Under the pieces are notes generated by a model. The model was not told the DNA's origin. It worked only from the letters and a program-made list of their open reading frames with translations, and did not search any database. From Syntrophales bacterium (GTDB lineage Bacteria > Desulfobacterota > Syntrophia > Syntrophales > UBA2210), in contig JALOBE010000002.1 of assembly GCA_023228425.1 (NCBI GenBank), positions 83,113 to 147,112 on the forward strand: 64,000 nucleotides of DNA. Direction: 5' to 3'. A program made the position numbers and the translations under genes. Shown here in pieces: positions 1,140 through 7,909 of this stretch; position 1 is the stretch's first letter; every line of letters begins with the position of its first letter.

Positions 1140-2306
1140 TTGAAAGGAACTGCAATGACTGCGGAAGACGTAAAAGACATTGCCGTGATCGGCGCCGGAG
1201 ACATGGGTCACGGAATCGCCGCCTGCTTCATCAGGGCAGGCTACCGGGTTGTCCTGCGGGACATCGAGCAGGAATACATCGATCGCGGCGTCGACAATAT
1301 AAGAAAAAGCCTGTCGCGCCTCGTGAACAAGGGCACAATGACCCGGGAGGCCTTCGATGAAGCACTGTCGCGACTGGTTCCCATGATTGACCTCGCGGAA
1401 GCCGTCCGAAACGCCGATTTCGTCATCGAGGCCGTTCCCGAACGGCCGGACCTGAAAAAAAGCGTTTTCGCCGAACTCGACCGGAACGCTCCGAAGCGTG
1501 CCATCCTGGCCTCCAACACGTCGAACATCAGCATCACCGATATAGCCGCTGCCACCGGCCGCCCCGACAAAGTCGTGGGCTGTCACTTCTTCAACCCGGC
1601 CATGGTAATGAAGCTGGTGGAGGTCACCCGGGGCGATCACTCCTCCGATGAATCAATTCAGACGGCCTGTGAACTGGCACGAAAGATCGGGAAGGTTCCC
1701 GTCATCGTTGAAAAAGACTCGCCGGGATTCATTTCCAACCGGGTCAATGAACCGACAGTGGTTCTGCTTTCAAAAATTCTTGAAGCAGGAACTCCCACGC
1801 CGGAAGAATTCGACGCCGCTTTCAAGGCATTCATGCCGATGACTCCCTTTGAACTTCTGGATTACGTCGGCATCGACATCTGTTATCACGGCCTCGAATA
1901 CTTCGCCCAGGCGCTTTCACCGGACTACGCGCCTTCGAAGGCCCTGGAAACCTATGTCAGGGAAGGCAGGCTGGGGAAAAAGACGGGGAGCGGATTCTTC
2001 GATTGGTCCCGGGGGAGACCGGAAATCGACCCTTCAAAAGCGACATCCGAGTATGACCTGAACCACCTGGTTGCCCTGCAGGTGAACGAAGCGACAAAGC
2101 TTATCGAAGAAGGCGTGTGTACCGATCCGGCACAGATCGATCTCGCCATGATAAACAGCAGCGGATCGCCCTTCGGACCCTTCGCCCTGGCCCGGGGGAT
2201 CGGCTATGACGTGCTGAACGCGAAGCTCGAAGAACTCTACGACAGGTTCGGACTGGAAATCTTCAAGCCCACGAAAACCATGAAGGAAGGTGGCGTGACC
2301 ACCTGA
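1140..2306 (+). CDS. 3-hydroxyacyl-CoA dehydrogenase, NAD-binding
   Basis: N-terminal Rossmann motif IAVIGAGDMGHGIA. NTSNISIT and FFNPAMVMKLVEV segments are typical of the HADH family. The start could instead be the ATG at 1155. Confidence 0.88.
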   Translation: MKGTAMTAEDVKDIAVIGAGDMGHGIAACFIRAGYRVVLRDIEQEYIDRGVDNIRKSLSRLVNKGTMTREAFDEALSRLVPMIDLAEAVRNADFVIEAVPERPDLKKSVFAELDRNAPKRAILASNTSNISITDIAAATGRPDKVVGCHFFNPAMVMKLVEVTRGDHSSDESIQTACELARKIGKVPVIVEKDSPGFISNRVNEPTVVLLSKILEAGTPTPEEFDAAFKAFMPMTPFELLDYVGIDICYHGLEYFAQALSPDYAPSKALETYVREGRLGKKTGSGFFDWSRGRPEIDPSKATSEYDLNHLVALQVNEATKLIEEGVCTDPAQIDLAMINSSGSPFGPFALARGIGYDVLNAKLEELYDRFGLEIFKPTKTMKEGGVTT

Positions 2307-2388
2307 TCCCTGGGAGCAAAACCTGCCGTCCGGGACGCCCCGCCCGTGTCACGCTGCCCGGGAAGACAACACAGCGTGACACGCGGTA

Positions 2389-2655
2389 CTAGAGCACGAT
2401 TGTGATGCCGCTATGGGAACTTAAGCGGTTAAAGAGATCCGTCCGGTCCTCGTCACTGTGCACGATGGCTTCAACCCGGAGGGAGCAGTAGGAGCCGGCG
2501 GCACTTGTCCTCGAATGACTGACCCGACAGGCCCGTTCCTGGAACACCTCCCCAATGGCCCGCTCCATCATGGCCCGATCGGAACCGATGACGGTGTATG
2601 CCCAGGAGCACGGATACTCCAGCACTGCCCGCCCTCCCTTCTTCTCCGGGTTCAT
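2389..2655 (-). CDS. DUF493/YbeD-family small protein
   Basis: EYPCSWAYTVIG matches the YbeD-type F/YPCxFxxKV(I/M)G core. The internal Met (MNPEKKGG) was chosen so the gene does not overlap the upstream stop at 2696. Confidence 0.6.
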   Translation of the reverse strand: MNPEKKGGRAVLEYPCSWAYTVIGSDRAMMERAIGEVFQERACRVSHSRTSAAGSYCSLRVEAIVHSDEDRTDLFNRLSSHSGITIVL

Positions 2656-2695
2656 GGCCGTACCGCCCCGGGGGGCCCTTGCCGCTCCCGCGGCA

Positions 2696-4105
2696 TCATT
2701 TTTCCAACTGTTCCAGGGCAAAATCCCAGTTGACGAGATTGTCCATGACGCCGGTCAGGTAATCGGCCCGCCTGTTCTGGTAGTCCAGATAATAGGCGTG
2801 TTCCCAGACGTCCACCGTAAGAAGGGCCTTGATACCGCGTGCTACAGGAGTATCGGCATCGGCAGTGGTCATGATATCAAGCTTGCCCTCGAGCATGACC
2901 AGCCAGGCCCAGCCGCTGCCGAACCGGCCCATGGCGGCCGCATGGAAGGCTTCCCGGAACCGGTCAAAACCGCCGAAGGAGGCGGTGATCAGTTCCAGCA
3001 TTTTCCCGCCCGGCCTTCCCCCTCCCCCCGGCGTGAGGCATTTCCAGTAAAACGTGTGGTTCCACAGCTGGGCCGCGTTGTTGAAGAGCGCTCGTTTCGA
3101 GGGGTCATCCACGATCGTTTTCAAAATTATCTCCAGGGGTTCCTCTTCAAGGCCGCTGCCCGCGATCAGTTTGTTCGCGTTTGCCTCATACTGGGCATGG
3201 TGCTTGCCGTAATGAAAATCAACGGTCCTTCCGCTGATAGTGGGCTCCAATGCCCCCGATGCATAGGGAAGATACTCTCGTTCAAGAATCATGGCTCCTG
3301 TTCCTCCTTCATGTTGGTCAGTCATCCTGCCGGTCGGTTGTTCACCCCTCTTTTCGACGGAGCTGCTGCCGGTGGAATGGATGGTTCCCTCTATCCGGTC
3401 CCCCGGCAGGATTTTCCGGTCCTTTTTCATACGTTCATCCATCCACAGGGGATGCCGTTTCCGGGCGTAGTCGAGTCCGACATACCCTGTGAACATACCT
3501 CTGAGAAGCGGTCTGTTCGGCTTTATCAGCAGGGCTGCGATATGGGCGACAAAGGCGAGAACAAACAGAAAAAAAGCACCATTGTGTATCCAGGTGGCCG
3601 TCAGGGCGATTGGCCGTGAAAGCTGAGGGTTCAGGAGGTTCATGTAGGTCTTGACCAGTCCGGAGAGTACCAGCAGTACTATGAGTGCCGCCATTCCCAT
3701 GTAGGCGAGGCGCTGTTCCGGCAGGTATTTCCCGAAAGGCGGCTCCTCGCCCTTGCCGAAAAATGATTTGATGACCGCGATGGATGCTTTCAAATCACCC
3801 CGCCGGGGAATAAGACCTCCGTCCCCCCGAAGCCCATGATAAAATAAATGGAAAAAAGCGACGGCAACGAAAACGATGGCGGCCGCGTAATGAAGCGAGA
3901 GGGTGACAAAAAAATCATCAGCCCAGGAAAAACCGGGAATCTCGGTAATATAGTATCGCCTTCCCACGGGCAGTTCGAGCAGGCCGGTGACGATCAGCAT
4001 GATTCCCGACAGGGCGACGGCCCAGTGCTCGACCATCTCTATCAGTCCATGCCGCCTTACCAGGTCCTGCTTCCTCGGGATTCCATCAGTCACAGCCGCC
4101 GCCAT
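2696..4105 (-). CDS. fused ORF: 4-TM b-type cytochrome (FdnI / Ni-hydrogenase cytochrome b / cytochrome b561-like) plus complete Fe/Mn superoxide dismutase
   Basis: The N-terminal ~250 aa has four hydrophobic helices with conserved His (VEHWAVA, HYAAA..FHLFYH, IHNGAF..AHIAA). The C-terminal ~200 aa has SOD signatures FHYGKHHAQY, NNAAQLWNHTFYW and DVWEHAYYLDYQNRR. There is no stop between the two parts. An internal GAAGGAGGA Shine-Dalgarno plus ATG near 3290 could also start SOD independently. Confidence 0.8.
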   Translation of the reverse strand: MAAAVTDGIPRKQDLVRRHGLIEMVEHWAVALSGIMLIVTGLLELPVGRRYYITEIPGFSWADDFFVTLSLHYAAAIVFVAVAFFHLFYHGLRGDGGLIPRRGDLKASIAVIKSFFGKGEEPPFGKYLPEQRLAYMGMAALIVLLVLSGLVKTYMNLLNPQLSRPIALTATWIHNGAFFLFVLAFVAHIAALLIKPNRPLLRGMFTGYVGLDYARKRHPLWMDERMKKDRKILPGDRIEGTIHSTGSSSVEKRGEQPTGRMTDQHEGGTGAMILEREYLPYASGALEPTISGRTVDFHYGKHHAQYEANANKLIAGSGLEEEPLEIILKTIVDDPSKRALFNNAAQLWNHTFYWKCLTPGGGGRPGGKMLELITASFGGFDRFREAFHAAAMGRFGSGWAWLVMLEGKLDIMTTADADTPVARGIKALLTVDVWEHAYYLDYQNRRADYLTGVMDNLVNWDFALEQLEK

Positions 4106-5081
4106 CCCGGTTGTCTTTTCCTCTCTGTTTCAGTGCGGCCACGGCCGCGGCGATCCCGGCACCCATTCCGGCAACCGGCGCCATGAGGACTGACGCTTCC
4201 AGAATGGATGCCCGGGCAAGCCGTCGTTCAACCCGGTCCAGGTGCGGCCGGCCCGGCCCCTTGGCCAGAACGGCATTTATATCCTCAAAGGGCACAGGCG
4301 ACAGGTAGATGGTCCCCGTGCCCCCGTTTTCCGTGTTCCCGTAGAGCCGGCCCCCCGTCCGCGCCGCCCTTCGCTCCGCCTCGTTGAATATGTCCCGCCT
4401 CAATCCGATGATCATGGCACCTCGGGGGCACGCCTCTACGCAGAGCGGAACCCGTTGCTTCATGAGTCGATCATAACAGAGGTCGCACTTGAACATGACA
4501 CCGTTTCCCGCCAGGGTCGGCAGAATATTCAAGTAGATGCCGAGACCGGATTGGCGCTGCGGGATACCCCAGGGACAGACGTCACGGCACTTTGCACCGC
4601 CGAAGCAGAGGTCGTCATCGATGACGACGGCACCGTTGGGATACTTGTGGTTCGCCGTGAAGGGACAGATGGTAGCACAGGGAGGATTGTCGCAGTGCAT
4701 GCAACGCCGCGGCAGATAAACCGTTCGTCTGTCGTCACCCTCCCCCACATCGGCCCGTTGCACATAGATCTGCGTATAGGGCGTCAACCGGTCAAGAACA
4801 TCCTTCCGTTCAGACCAGTCTTCGATCTGTCCCCGTGGAAAGAGCTTTGGAATCGGTTGTTCGGGATCGGGAATCCTCTCCAGGGCCCGTTCCCTGCAGG
4901 CCGCGACACAAAGCGCAACGGCGTGATCCACACACCCGTCGCAGAGCGTACAGTCGATCAGCGTGGCGAGATCTCCCCGACGGGGTCCGTCGGCAGCAAA
5001 GGACGGCGCGCCGGAAATGCCCGTCAGTGCAGCCAGGCTGGCGGCTGCCCGCAGAAAATGTCTTCTCGATAAAACCGGCAT
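4086..5081 (-). CDS. Tat-exported multi-[4Fe-4S] ferredoxin-type subunit (HybA/FdnH/DmsB-like) with C-terminal membrane anchor
   Basis: Twin-arginine signal MPVLSRRHFLRAAASLAALTG. Cys clusters CMHCDNPPCATICP, CFGGAKCRDVCP and CDLCYDRLMKQRVPLCVEACP. Hydrophobic C-terminal helix. The ORF track starts at a TTG at 5102; I prefer the ATG at 5081. Confidence 0.8.
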   Translation of the reverse strand: MPVLSRRHFLRAAASLAALTGISGAPSFAADGPRRGDLATLIDCTLCDGCVDHAVALCVAACRERALERIPDPEQPIPKLFPRGQIEDWSERKDVLDRLTPYTQIYVQRADVGEGDDRRTVYLPRRCMHCDNPPCATICPFTANHKYPNGAVVIDDDLCFGGAKCRDVCPWGIPQRQSGLGIYLNILPTLAGNGVMFKCDLCYDRLMKQRVPLCVEACPRGAMIIGLRRDIFNEAERRAARTGGRLYGNTENGGTGTIYLSPVPFEDINAVLAKGPGRPHLDRVERRLARASILEASVLMAPVAGMGAGIAAAVAALKQRGKDNRDGGGCD

Positions 5082-5230
5082 CGTTTTTCTTTCAGCCTGC
5101 AATCCATTTCAATCATCGATCACCGGAGCCACATTGTACGTCGGAACGGCACCGGTGACTTCGGGTGTTCCGCAGTATCTCATATATTGGAGGCAGCGTA
5201 CAGCATCTTTCGAGAAACCAGGGCACTTCG

Positions 5231-7909
5231 TCAGTGCGCCTCGTCCCAGTCGCCGCCGCTCCTGATATGCACTTCAAGCGGAACCTTCAGGGTGATGACA
5301 CCTTCCATTTCCTTTTTCACGAGATCCGCAAGGCTGTCTCGTTCTTCCCGGGGGACTTCAAAGACAAGTTCGTCGTGAACCTGCATGATCATACGGGCGG
5401 AGAATTCTTTTTCTTTGATGGCTCCGGCGATCCGCAGCATCGCGATCTTTATAAGATCCGCCGCGGACCCCTGGATGGGCGTGTTCACCGCCGCCCGTTC
5501 GGCAAACTGGCGGACCTGAACGATGGGGCTGTTGATCTCAGGAATTGCCCGGCGCCGCTTCATGATGGTAGTCACGAAACCGTCCTCCCTGGCCTGATCG
5601 AGCACCTTCTCTATGAAGCGACTGACCCCCTGGAAACGCTGGAAATATTCGTCAATGTAAATCTTTGCCATTTTCTGGGTTATGCCCAGTTCCCGAGCCA
5701 GCCCGAAGGGGCTCATTCCATAGATCACACCGAAGTTTATGACCTTTGCCTGCCGCCGCATCTCGTCGTTGACCAGGGCCGGGAAAACGCCGAAGACCGT
5801 GGAGGCCGTCTTTCGGTGAATGTCCTCGCCATCGGCGAAGGCCTGTATCAGCTCTTCATCCTCTGAAAGATGGGCCAGGATGCGCAGTTCGATCTGCGAA
5901 TAGTCCGACGACAGGAGTTCCCAGCCCTCGGGTGCCTTGAATGCCTGGCGGATGCGCTTCCCCTCGGTGGTTCTGATGGGAATATTCTGCAGATTCGGAT
6001 CGCTGCTGGAGAGCCGTCCCGTCGCCGTTGCCGTCTGGTTATAGGATGTGTGGATTCTCCCCGTTTCGGGATTGATAAGCTCAGGCAGGGCATCCACGTA
6101 GGTGGACCGCAGTTTGGCAAGACTCCTGTAAGCCAGGATTTCTCCAGGCAATTCATAGGAGCGGGCAAGGCGCGCGAGTACCTCCACGTCCGTTGAATAT
6201 CCCTCTTTTGTCTTGCGCCCCCGGGGCATTCCCAGCTTGTCGAAGAGTACGACCTGGAGCTGCCTGGGCGAATTGATATTGAATCGCTCTCCCGCCAGGG
6301 CATAAATCTTTTCTTCAGAGAGCCTGAGCAGTTCCCCCAGATCCTTCGACATGTCCGCCAGGAGGCCGCCATCGACAAGAACTCCGTAAAACTCCATGGC
6401 AGCCAGAACTTCCACCAAGGGCATTTCAATCTCCCTGAACAGCTCGGCCAGTCCCTCTTTCCTGATTTCGTCTTCCAACAGGGGCTTCAGGCTCGAGAGG
6501 ACGTCCACTGACCGGCAGAAACAGTCGACGGCCTTGTCCGGAGGGACATCACGGATCGATAGGGCACGGGCACCGCTCCCCGTCAGTTCCTCCGGCGACG
6601 GAAGACGACGGTTCAGGTATCGGGCGGCAAGTGACTGAAGACTGTAGTCCCTCTTCGATGCATCGAGGAGCCAGGCTGCCACCATGGTGTCAAAGTCGGC
6701 CCCCGCGAGGGTAATGCGGTTTGTCGCGAGGACAAGAAAGGCCTTCTTGAGGTCGTGACCGGTTTTGAGAATCGCGGGATCTGAAAAAACCGGCCCCAAC
6801 GATGAATAGAGGGACTCCGGCTCGAGTCCGACGCCATCTTCCTCCTTCCCGATGGGAATATACCAGGCCTCCCCCGGCCGGGCTGAAAGGGCCAGTCCGA
6901 CCGGTTCAATGCCCCGCTGAGGAATCTCCCGGCCGGTGACGAATTCAAAGGAAAAACTTCCCGCCTCCCGGAGGAGCCTCGAAAGGTCGTGAAGATGCTC
7001 TTCACGGGTAATCAGCGTATAACTACGGTCACCGGGGGCCTCTCGGCCCTGCACCTGCTGCAGCAGCGATGAAAATTCAAATTCCGAGAACAGAGCCCTC
7101 AAGGCGTCGGCGTCGAGATTTTGTCGCACCAGGTCTTCAAGTGATACATCAAGATCCAGATCGGTCCTGATGGTCGCAAGCTCCCGGCTCAAGCGCGCCT
7201 GGTCGGCATATTCCATGAGATTGCTTTTCAGTCGGCCCCCCTTCAACTCCTCAAGACGGCTCAGTATGTCATCCAGGGAACCGTAGTTACTCACCAGTTT
7301 TACGGCTGTCTTTTCTCCGATTCCCGGCACGCCCGGTATGTTGTCGGAAGAGTCTCCGGCAAGTCCCAGTACGTCGACAACCCGGTCCGGCGGAACCCCG
7401 AAGCGTTCCACTACACCATCCATGTCGTAGGATTTGTCCTTCATTGTATCCACAATGGTGACCCGGGCGGTCACCAGTTGCAGCAGGTCTTTGTCTCCGG
7501 AGGCTATCTTTACCCGGACACCCCGGGCATCGGCTGATTTTGCCAGTGTACCGATGATATCGTCGGCTTCGACACCTTCCCTCTCTATGACGGGAATGGC
7601 AAAGCCTCGCACCACATCCTTGACGCGGGGGATCTGAAGAACGAGATCATCGGGCATGACAGGCCGGTTCGCCTTGTACTGATCGTAGGCTTCATGGCGG
7701 AAGGTGGGTCCCTTCGCGTCGAACACGACGGCCATGTAGTCCGGTTCCTGTTCCCGGATCAGCTTCATCAGCATGGTGGTGAAGCCGTATATGGCGTTCG
7801 TGGGGAAGCCCTTCGAGTTTGAAAGTTCACGAATGGCATAGAAGGCCCGGTAGACATAGTTGGTGCCGTCCACGAGAACCAGAGTGGGGTAATCACGGTT
7901 ATCCGACAC
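5231..7909 (-). CDS. polA: DNA polymerase I
   Basis: 892 aa. The N-terminus is 5'-3' exonuclease-like (LVDGTNYVYRAFYA). Pol A motifs DYSQIELRILAHLS and QVHDELVFE are present. Confidence 0.97.
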   Translation of the reverse strand: MSDNRDYPTLVLVDGTNYVYRAFYAIRELSNSKGFPTNAIYGFTTMLMKLIREQEPDYMAVVFDAKGPTFRHEAYDQYKANRPVMPDDLVLQIPRVKDVVRGFAIPVIEREGVEADDIIGTLAKSADARGVRVKIASGDKDLLQLVTARVTIVDTMKDKSYDMDGVVERFGVPPDRVVDVLGLAGDSSDNIPGVPGIGEKTAVKLVSNYGSLDDILSRLEELKGGRLKSNLMEYADQARLSRELATIRTDLDLDVSLEDLVRQNLDADALRALFSEFEFSSLLQQVQGREAPGDRSYTLITREEHLHDLSRLLREAGSFSFEFVTGREIPQRGIEPVGLALSARPGEAWYIPIGKEEDGVGLEPESLYSSLGPVFSDPAILKTGHDLKKAFLVLATNRITLAGADFDTMVAAWLLDASKRDYSLQSLAARYLNRRLPSPEELTGSGARALSIRDVPPDKAVDCFCRSVDVLSSLKPLLEDEIRKEGLAELFREIEMPLVEVLAAMEFYGVLVDGGLLADMSKDLGELLRLSEEKIYALAGERFNINSPRQLQVVLFDKLGMPRGRKTKEGYSTDVEVLARLARSYELPGEILAYRSLAKLRSTYVDALPELINPETGRIHTSYNQTATATGRLSSSDPNLQNIPIRTTEGKRIRQAFKAPEGWELLSSDYSQIELRILAHLSEDEELIQAFADGEDIHRKTASTVFGVFPALVNDEMRRQAKVINFGVIYGMSPFGLARELGITQKMAKIYIDEYFQRFQGVSRFIEKVLDQAREDGFVTTIMKRRRAIPEINSPIVQVRQFAERAAVNTPIQGSAADLIKIAMLRIAGAIKEKEFSARMIMQVHDELVFEVPREERDSLADLVKKEMEGVITLKVPLEVHIRSGGDWDEAH

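Follow-up and report, generated by a model that had tools for sequence, protein, structure and literature searches.

A cytochrome b-superoxide dismutase open frame in a Syntrophales bacterium and its probable origin by frameshift

The fused frame and its parts

The window analysed here is a stretch of 64,000 nucleotides (nt) from a Syntrophales bacterium (GenBank assembly GCA_023228425.1, contig JALOBE010000002.1, positions 83,113 to 147,112), whose genome, assembled from a metagenome, is a draft in 35 contigs with a completeness of 97.9%. Our subject is a single open frame in which a membrane cytochrome b runs on into a complete superoxide dismutase (SOD). It is part of a conserved row of genes that starts with an iron-sulfur (Fe-S) protein and ends with a small DUF493-family protein (Table 1). 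An initial annotation, made from the letters alone, had described this 469-codon frame, and both its openness and its two sets of domains are confirmed. In the databases, gene calls for the fused DNA span 198 to 469 amino acids (aa); given such differing calls on identical DNA, the locus is also a caution for annotation.

Table 1. Features of the locus, in window coordinates
Feature	Position	Strand	Size or residues	Basis or remark
Fe-S subunit, HybA/HmcB/FdnH-like	4086..5081	-	331-338 aa	NCBIfam, Pfam, motif reading; alternative TTG start at 5102
Fused open frame, cytochrome b + SOD	2696..4105	-	469 codons	open reading frame
FdnI-type dihaem cytochrome b core	3410..4105	-	residues 1-232	four transmembrane helices and a short cytoplasmic helical segment
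Cytochrome b C-terminal tail, predicted disordered	3293..3409	-	residues 233-271	now the linker; holds the putative frameshift site, ~3322-3337
Shine-Dalgarno sequence of SOD, AAGGAGG	3303..3309	-		AGGAGG at 3308-3303, 10 nt ahead of the SOD ATG (3292-3290)
Fe-type SOD	2696..3292	-	residues 272-469; 198 aa from own ATG, and stop	Pfam
DUF493/HP0495-family small protein	2389..2721	-		PF04359, NF050007; last of the conserved row; alternative ATG at 2655
polA	5231-7909			upstream of the Fe-S gene

The first part of the frame is a dihaem cytochrome b of the FdnI type, not of the CybB type. Pfam places PF01292 at residues 18-207 of the fused protein (73.8 bits; gathering cut-off, 30.1), and among NCBIfam models the formate dehydrogenase gamma subunits are closest. 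The only sequence match of this part in the Protein Data Bank (PDB) is E. coli FdnI (1kqf_C, E = 4.9e-6), likewise a four-helix dihaem cytochrome b. The window cytochrome differs from FdnI in falling below the equivalog cut-offs (TIGR01583, 52.2 bits versus 115.85; NF007924, 49.7 versus 341) and in bearing a long, disordered tail followed by the SOD. In the alignment with 1kqf_C, H27, H174 and H188 coincide with chain histidines 18, 155 and 169, and H72 sits 5 positions off histidine 57 in a weakly aligned stretch; we take the haem ligands of FdnI to be His18, His57, His155 and His169 (1KQF). All four histidines of the window protein are invariant across family alignments of 12 and of 29 sequences. 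A lack of haem-ligand conservation would, according to the initial annotation, have refuted its own reading; for these putative ligands, the alignments contain no such lack.

The fold of the cytochrome agrees with its sequence. Only the cytochrome part was modelled; a mixed alignment of cytochromes, SODs and fusions was dropped, as the SODs had been misaligned onto the cytochrome (16-22% identity). The AlphaFold2 model of residues 1-270, made with the 29-sequence alignment, has a mean predicted local distance difference test score (pLDDT) of 84.7 and is confident over approximately residues 10-232, with helices at 21-44, 65-92, 129-157 and 164-194. Over residues 231-270 the pLDDT falls to 44-63, which predicts disorder over about residues 233-271. 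Foldseek ranks FdnI first (1kqf_C, E = 2.7e-7, template modelling (TM) score 0.78 on the target), with the cytochrome b of hydrogenase-1 next (4gd3_A, TM score 0.55); the superoxide oxidase 5oc0 appears at rank 17 (E = 1.3, TM score 0.61 on the target).

Hydropathy marks hydrophobic segments at residues 27-48, 66-88, 134-155 and 171-193, and the counts of lysine and arginine along the N-terminus, the three loops and the tail are 4, 2, 8, 1 and 15. This charge bias suggests an N-in, C-in topology, in which the cytochrome would resemble E. coli FdnI/FdnH. The SOD domain would then be cytoplasmic, and the earlier topology prediction is upheld to that extent. The initial annotation had also described a linker of about 45 residues. 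A stretch between the domains does exist, but it is the cytochrome's own C-terminal tail, predicted to be disordered and poorly conserved among cytochrome homologues. Similarly, the 20-nt overlap reported between the cytochrome and the Fe-S gene holds for the ATG at 4105, but not for the GTG at 4093, four codons past it, at which homologues and two database gene calls begin. The latter is probably the true start, and gives a 465-aa product and an overlap of 8 nt.

The remainder of the frame is a SOD of the Fe type. Pfam finds Sod_Fe_N at residues 278-357 (77.4 bits; cut-off, 27) and Sod_Fe_C at 366-464 (119 bits; cut-off, 20.9); PDB matches to Fe-SODs reach an E-value of 1.7e-65, and identity to many Fe-SODs is 50-60%. 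The translation contains FHYGKHH, WNHTFYW and DVWEHAYY, motifs that had been read before (the last of them as DVWEH), and we take the metal ligands, three histidines and one aspartate, to lie in them. The protein thus shares both Pfam domains and the motifs for all four ligands with bacterial SodB, and it is equipped with a ribosome-binding site and an ATG of its own. It differs from SodB in being read in frame with a preceding membrane protein, and its NCBIfam score, although SodB-like, is 217.6 bits versus an equivalog cut-off of 348. The initial annotation had cautioned that an internal Shine-Dalgarno sequence and ATG could express the SOD by itself, the cytochrome gene being the one that has no stop of its own. 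That caution stands. Because the AGGAGG and the ATG are intact, internal initiation probably still yields a free SOD of 198 aa; one database record (P0121) calls exactly this product.

The third component, encoded directly upstream of the cytochrome, is the Fe-S subunit. Its NCBIfam scores, 128 bits for HybA (cut-off, 263) and 120.6 bits for HmcB, are both under the equivalog cut-offs; Pfam reports Fer4_11 at 64.5 bits and TAT_signal at 18 bits, below the cut-off of 22.7. The translation carries the twin-arginine motif SRRHFL, 16 cysteines of the cluster type and one more, and a hydrophobic anchor at residues 296-317. The earlier description of a HybA/FdnH-like Fe-S protein exported by the twin-arginine translocation (Tat) route and anchored in the membrane is borne out by these elements. 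E. coli FdnH is likewise a Tat-exported, four-cluster protein with a C-terminal anchor.

Authenticity and origin of the fused allele

A single extra base would create the fused frame, and the genome is a metagenome-assembled draft. One must therefore ask whether the organism really has two genes that a sequencing or assembly error has joined. We consider this very unlikely. The identical fused protein is encoded on contigs of 177,491 nt, 263,975/264,011 nt and 399,197 nt from different sources, with gene calls of 446, 465 and 469 aa and one NCBI call for the 198-aa SOD alone. Every sampled word of the 901-base stretch 2900-3800 recurs in landfill runs, three in number and drawn from three studies, which may include the source sample. 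Positions 3267-3800, and with them the whole tail, the putative frameshift site and the SOD ATG, are also covered by a Logan contig of an unrelated run, X4, from manure; it has two substitutions (one of them V186I) and no insertion or deletion. Across the site this contig concurs with one from run X2, with no letters inserted or deleted in either. Parts of 3267-3323 and 3295-3597 are not covered by the contigs from X5 and X7, gaps that are uninformative. By our reading, the site is not a homopolymer. The initial annotation had advised that the junction be re-checked for a sequencing frameshift; the allele recurs on differing contigs and in an unrelated run, with no indel.

How the frame came to be fused is best seen from close relatives. 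We compared 40 related genomes, of which five belong to the same genus (G001-G005) and 35 do not. In all five congeners, the genes for the Fe-S protein, the cytochrome b, the SOD and the DUF493 protein occur in identical order and on one strand, and in all five a stop codon separates the cytochrome b from the SOD. Such a stop in orthologous loci had been named beforehand as an observation that would refute a dedicated fused unit, and that claim is accordingly not supported. In G001, G004 and G005, the TAA of the cytochrome gene shares a base with the ATG of the SOD gene, and AGGAGG lies within the final codons of the cytochrome. The two genes of G002 are separated by 48 nt that contain three in-frame stops, and G003 has a short cytochrome of 230 aa and a gap of ~170 nt before the SOD. 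The Shine-Dalgarno sequence of the SOD is kept in all five: as AGGAGG 7 nt before the ATG in G001, G004 and G005 and 6 nt before it in G003, and in a weaker form, AGAGGAGG, ending 8 nt ahead of the SOD ATG, in G002. The spacing in the window is 10 nt, against 6-8 nt in the congeners.

The old ending of the cytochrome gene can still be read in the window. From the conserved LDYA..HPLW stretch of the cytochrome to HYGKHH of the SOD, the window measures 279 nt, versus 302-351 nt in the congeners, and its two genes share one frame. One base off the cytochrome frame, the last 11 codons before the SOD spell a short peptide that ends in a TGA overlapping the SOD ATG (ATGA). The closest relatives of the cytochrome (P0002-P0004) are stand-alone proteins of 261-264 aa that are 74-77% identical to it. 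The body of their tail aligns to the cytochrome frame of the window (scores of 40-44 versus 17-26), and the best alignment of their final 12 residues is with the frame shifted by one base (29-35 versus 14-19). For P0003, seven of nine aligned residues match in that other frame, and the last residue falls on the codon before the stop. This out-of-frame match of the ancestral ending points to an insertion of 3n+1 nt as the cause of the fusion, and the legibility of the ending suggests that the event is recent. One base would suffice; the comparison with P0003 suggests 16 nt, at about 3322-3337.

These observations can be arranged into a simple course of events. In the ancestor, the stop of the cytochrome b gene would have overlapped the start of the SOD gene in an ATGA-type arrangement, giving translational coupling. 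An insertion of 3n+1 nt near 3322-3337 would then have entered the last ~11-16 codons of the cytochrome, in its disordered cytoplasmic tail, shifting the cytochrome frame into that of the SOD and bypassing the old stop. Because that stop is skipped, every ribosome that translates the cytochrome would now run on into the SOD. The predicted product is a membrane protein of 465-469 aa in which a disordered linker of ~40 residues holds the SOD at the cytoplasmic face.

We therefore think it probable that the frame is a real, recent and species-specific frameshift fusion of translationally coupled neighbours, and that it is a tolerated by-product rather than a designed superoxide machine; we infer that the fusion is neutral. 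Several points weigh against this interpretation. A common source habitat or sample may lie behind the three assemblies and runs X1-X3, and the sole clearly independent contig, that of X4, ends 26 nt past the SOD ATG, short of the 31 nt that count as bridging. The exact indel, 1 nt or ~16 nt, is deduced from protein comparison alone, and the fused and the free product are alike predictions from the reading frames. Finally, the genus-wide coupling of the two genes, the presence of only one Fe/Mn SOD among the genes found and the failure to find desulfoferrodoxin leave room for a functional link.

If the frameshift origin is correct, the locus illustrates, in a clean and natural case, one route to multidomain membrane proteins: a frameshift in the last codons of the first of two translationally coupled genes. 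The second gene keeps its own ribosome-binding site after the weld, and the origin is readable directly from the sequence.

Rarity of the architecture and its possible function

The initial annotation had suggested a database search for the same pairing of cytochrome and SOD domains. No recurrence was seen: in two large protein searches, PF01292 and SOD domains are joined only in the window species' own cluster. A word-indexed search of 5.8 billion proteins gave 1818 matches at E <= 0.001 among 8000 candidates. Among the best 120 of these, the own cluster alone has the architecture, and the rest are 116 stand-alone cytochromes (~258-330 aa), two fusions of a cytochrome to an alpha/beta hydrolase and one plant SOD. 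Against 1.84 billion representatives, searched exhaustively with HMMER, no sequence among the best 150 matches both halves. Eight long SOD-containing matches are without PF01292 according to Pfam, and P0147, P0194 and P0258, of ~300-350 aa, were not scanned. One candidate for a second fusion, P0270 (473 aa, SOD at 270-463), was rejected: Pfam finds nothing in its N-terminal part, which reads as soluble. One full-text literature search yielded, among the 10 listed of 20 matching papers, no report of a gene fusion between a membrane cytochrome b and a SOD. On this sequence evidence, the pairing of PF01292 with an Fe-SOD is new, being absent elsewhere among the matches examined in two very large protein collections.

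Even the adjacency of the two genes appears confined to the genus. It occurs in none of the 35 other relatives, in which the matches lie on different contigs or far apart, and no SOD lies downstream of the cytochrome in any of 80 metagenome loci with cytochrome relatives at 50-65% identity. Among 79 SOD loci sampled across bacteria, in a scan dominated by generic SOD motifs, a single one has a PF01292 neighbour, which is about what chance would allow. This locus, from an unrelated Desulfobacteraceae metagenome-assembled genome (L031:1798-5326), holds two multihaem cytochromes c and a distantly related PF01292 cytochrome b of 270 aa, with an Fe-SOD following 117 nt on along the same strand. It represents a second, independent adjacency of cytochrome b and SOD genes.

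A different enzyme has been attached to the same tail elsewhere. In P0014, P0079, G006 and G012, a cytochrome b of the same FdnI-like family carries an alpha/beta hydrolase (PF12146/PF12697) on its C-terminal tail, giving proteins of 533-547 aa. As at the window locus, the Fe-S gene still lies upstream (L007:197-1795 in G006; L010:619-2259 in G012). This fusion, found in two genera and several metagenome records (JGI, NCBI), is better conserved than the SOD fusion; it carries PF12146 and recurs in several genomes and metagenomes, whereas the SOD fusion has been seen in a single species. The existence of such proteins argues that a cytoplasmic enzyme on this tail is tolerated.

The initial annotation had gone further, proposing a dedicated membrane unit for the handling of superoxide, by analogy with E. 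coli cytochrome b561 (CybB). CybB has been linked to superoxide chemistry (PMC11869295; bioRxiv 10.1101/2021.12.23.473985). The superoxide oxidase gathers superoxide on the periplasmic side, at a cationic site, and its reduction of quinone takes place on the cytoplasmic side (PMC11869295). CybB (5OC0) does share PF01292, four helices and two b haems with the window cytochrome. However, CybB works alone and has its cationic superoxide site on the periplasmic face, where the window cytochrome would be expected to dock its Fe-S subunit. The analogy is weak, since the superoxide oxidase collects its substrate on the periplasmic side and the SOD here would be cytoplasmic, opposite the CybB site; the structural ranking given above, in which 5oc0 stands far below FdnI, also speaks against the likeness. 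We accordingly do not uphold the proposed dedicated unit: the congeners have stops, the ancestral stop is legible out of frame, the cytochrome is of the FdnI type, and hydropathy and charge bias place the SOD on the cytoplasmic side. The functional idea that survives is that of a genus-wide, tightly coupled operon holding both genes.

The idea of the initial annotation survives in the form of an adaptive reading. The only Fe/Mn SOD of the organism would be tethered to a menaquinone-reactive cytochrome b on the cytoplasmic face that bears the quinone site, and superoxide would be removed at its source; reduced quinone and haem would yield superoxide on exposure to oxygen, and the succession of Fe-S, cytochrome b and SOD genes would form an oxidative-stress module. 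In its favor, the genes are adjacent and tightly coupled in all five congeners, by stop/start overlap or a shared AGGAGG. The genome holds a single PF02777 match (Cu/Zn and Ni SODs were not searched for), and neither desulfoferrodoxin nor cytochrome bd had a match in this nearly complete genome. Further, the fused allele recurs in several samples, and the Desulfobacteraceae locus offers an adjacency of its own. These facts must be set against the restriction of the adjacency to one genus, the chance-level frequency of PF01292 neighbours at SOD loci, and a fusion that is found in one species, derives from a frameshift and still displays its ancestral stop. Moreover, a SOD needs no electron donor, and the cytochrome is not of the CybB type. 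On balance, we judge the adaptive reading improbable. Were it true, the coupled row of Fe-S, cytochrome b, SOD and DUF493 genes would be an oxygen-stress module of syntrophic anaerobes in the course of becoming a single protein. The fusion would have biological weight only if a tethered SOD were advantageous, and the evidence points instead to a tolerated accident in one species.

The Fe-S/cytochrome pair and the neighbouring genes

The Fe-S gene and the cytochrome gene are a self-contained two-gene unit. A homologue of the former lies directly upstream of the latter in 73 of the 80 metagenome loci, and the remaining seven begin at a contig edge. The initial annotation had remarked that the catalytic subunit with which such a pair normally works is missing, and so it is: no molybdopterin or hydrogenase catalytic subunit adjoins the pair in the window, in which polA lies upstream, and the PF00384 genes of the genome sit on other contigs or far off. 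Likewise, Pfam found no catalytic gene among 28 same-strand neighbour frames from 22 of 30 distinct loci with full flanks, the opposite strand not having been scanned. The neighbours of the pair vary (GNAT, BKACE, SDR, rhodanese, CNNM), with a NapH-like polyferredoxin in some loci and a CsoR-like repressor in two. In contrast to FdnGHI, then, the pair lacks an adjoining molybdopterin subunit, and the formate dehydrogenase cluster of the same genome, on another contig, has a cytochrome b of its own. By analogy with FdnH-FdnI, the most likely role of the pair is to carry electrons, in a quinone-linked manner, between a redox partner in the periplasm and the menaquinone pool.

The formate dehydrogenase-like cluster (contig C7 of the window genome, G000, at ~38.4-47.8 kb; L107, L108, L110 and L111) comprises three molybdopterin genes along with its PF01292 cytochrome b. 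Two of the three molybdopterin genes carry an in-frame TGA, possibly for selenocysteine.

In G001, G002 and G004, the gene that immediately precedes the Fe-S gene encodes the NapH-like membrane polyferredoxin (PF12801, Fer4_5; L004:3-491, L005:3288-3776 and L003:3870-4322), and such a gene also adjoins the pair in four metagenome loci (L150, L176, L185 and L189). It is absent from this position in the window species, where polA is found instead; its best match in the rest of the genome has 34% identity. A metal-sensitive repressor gene of the CsoR/RcnR type (PF02583) lies just upstream of the pair, on the same strand, in two loci (L158:1091-1483 and L185:950-1465).

The absence of the NapH-like gene, with polA upstream instead, suggests local remodelling, and it bears on one more alternative, namely that the cytochrome b gene is decaying. 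The frameshift would then destabilize the cytochrome, the fusion would be cleaved or degraded, and the SOD translated from the internal start would alone matter. Besides the missing NapH-like gene, this idea draws on the presence of two other PF01292 cytochromes in the genome, one of them inside the formate dehydrogenase cluster, as mentioned. It is opposed by the state of the genes themselves: neither the Fe-S gene nor the cytochrome core is damaged, all family-invariant residues are kept, and the change touches just the final 11-16 residues of a tail that is variable and disordered, with no further lesions. We regard decay as unlikely, slightly more so than the adaptive reading, and continue to favor a tolerated frameshift fusion.

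Less can be said of transcription at the locus. A scan of 2200-5400 for sigma-70 promoters gave no sites, and the five terminator-like sites in this interval are within the expectation from shuffled sequence (mean, 3.2; standard deviation, 1.9), so that transcript boundaries are not placeable. Among the 24 runs returned for the 901-base query 2900-3800, none is an RNA run.

The last gene of the row belongs to the DUF493 family by both models (PF04359, 60.7 bits; NF050007, 84 bits versus a cut-off of 45). Converging on the four-gene row from the other side are two open reading frames on the forward strand, one resembling an enoyl-CoA hydratase (369-1133) and one a 3-hydroxyacyl-CoA dehydrogenase (1140-2306), names that rest on a reading of the translations alone. 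In G001 and G004, the row is also flanked by an open reading frame that resembles the end of the second of these.

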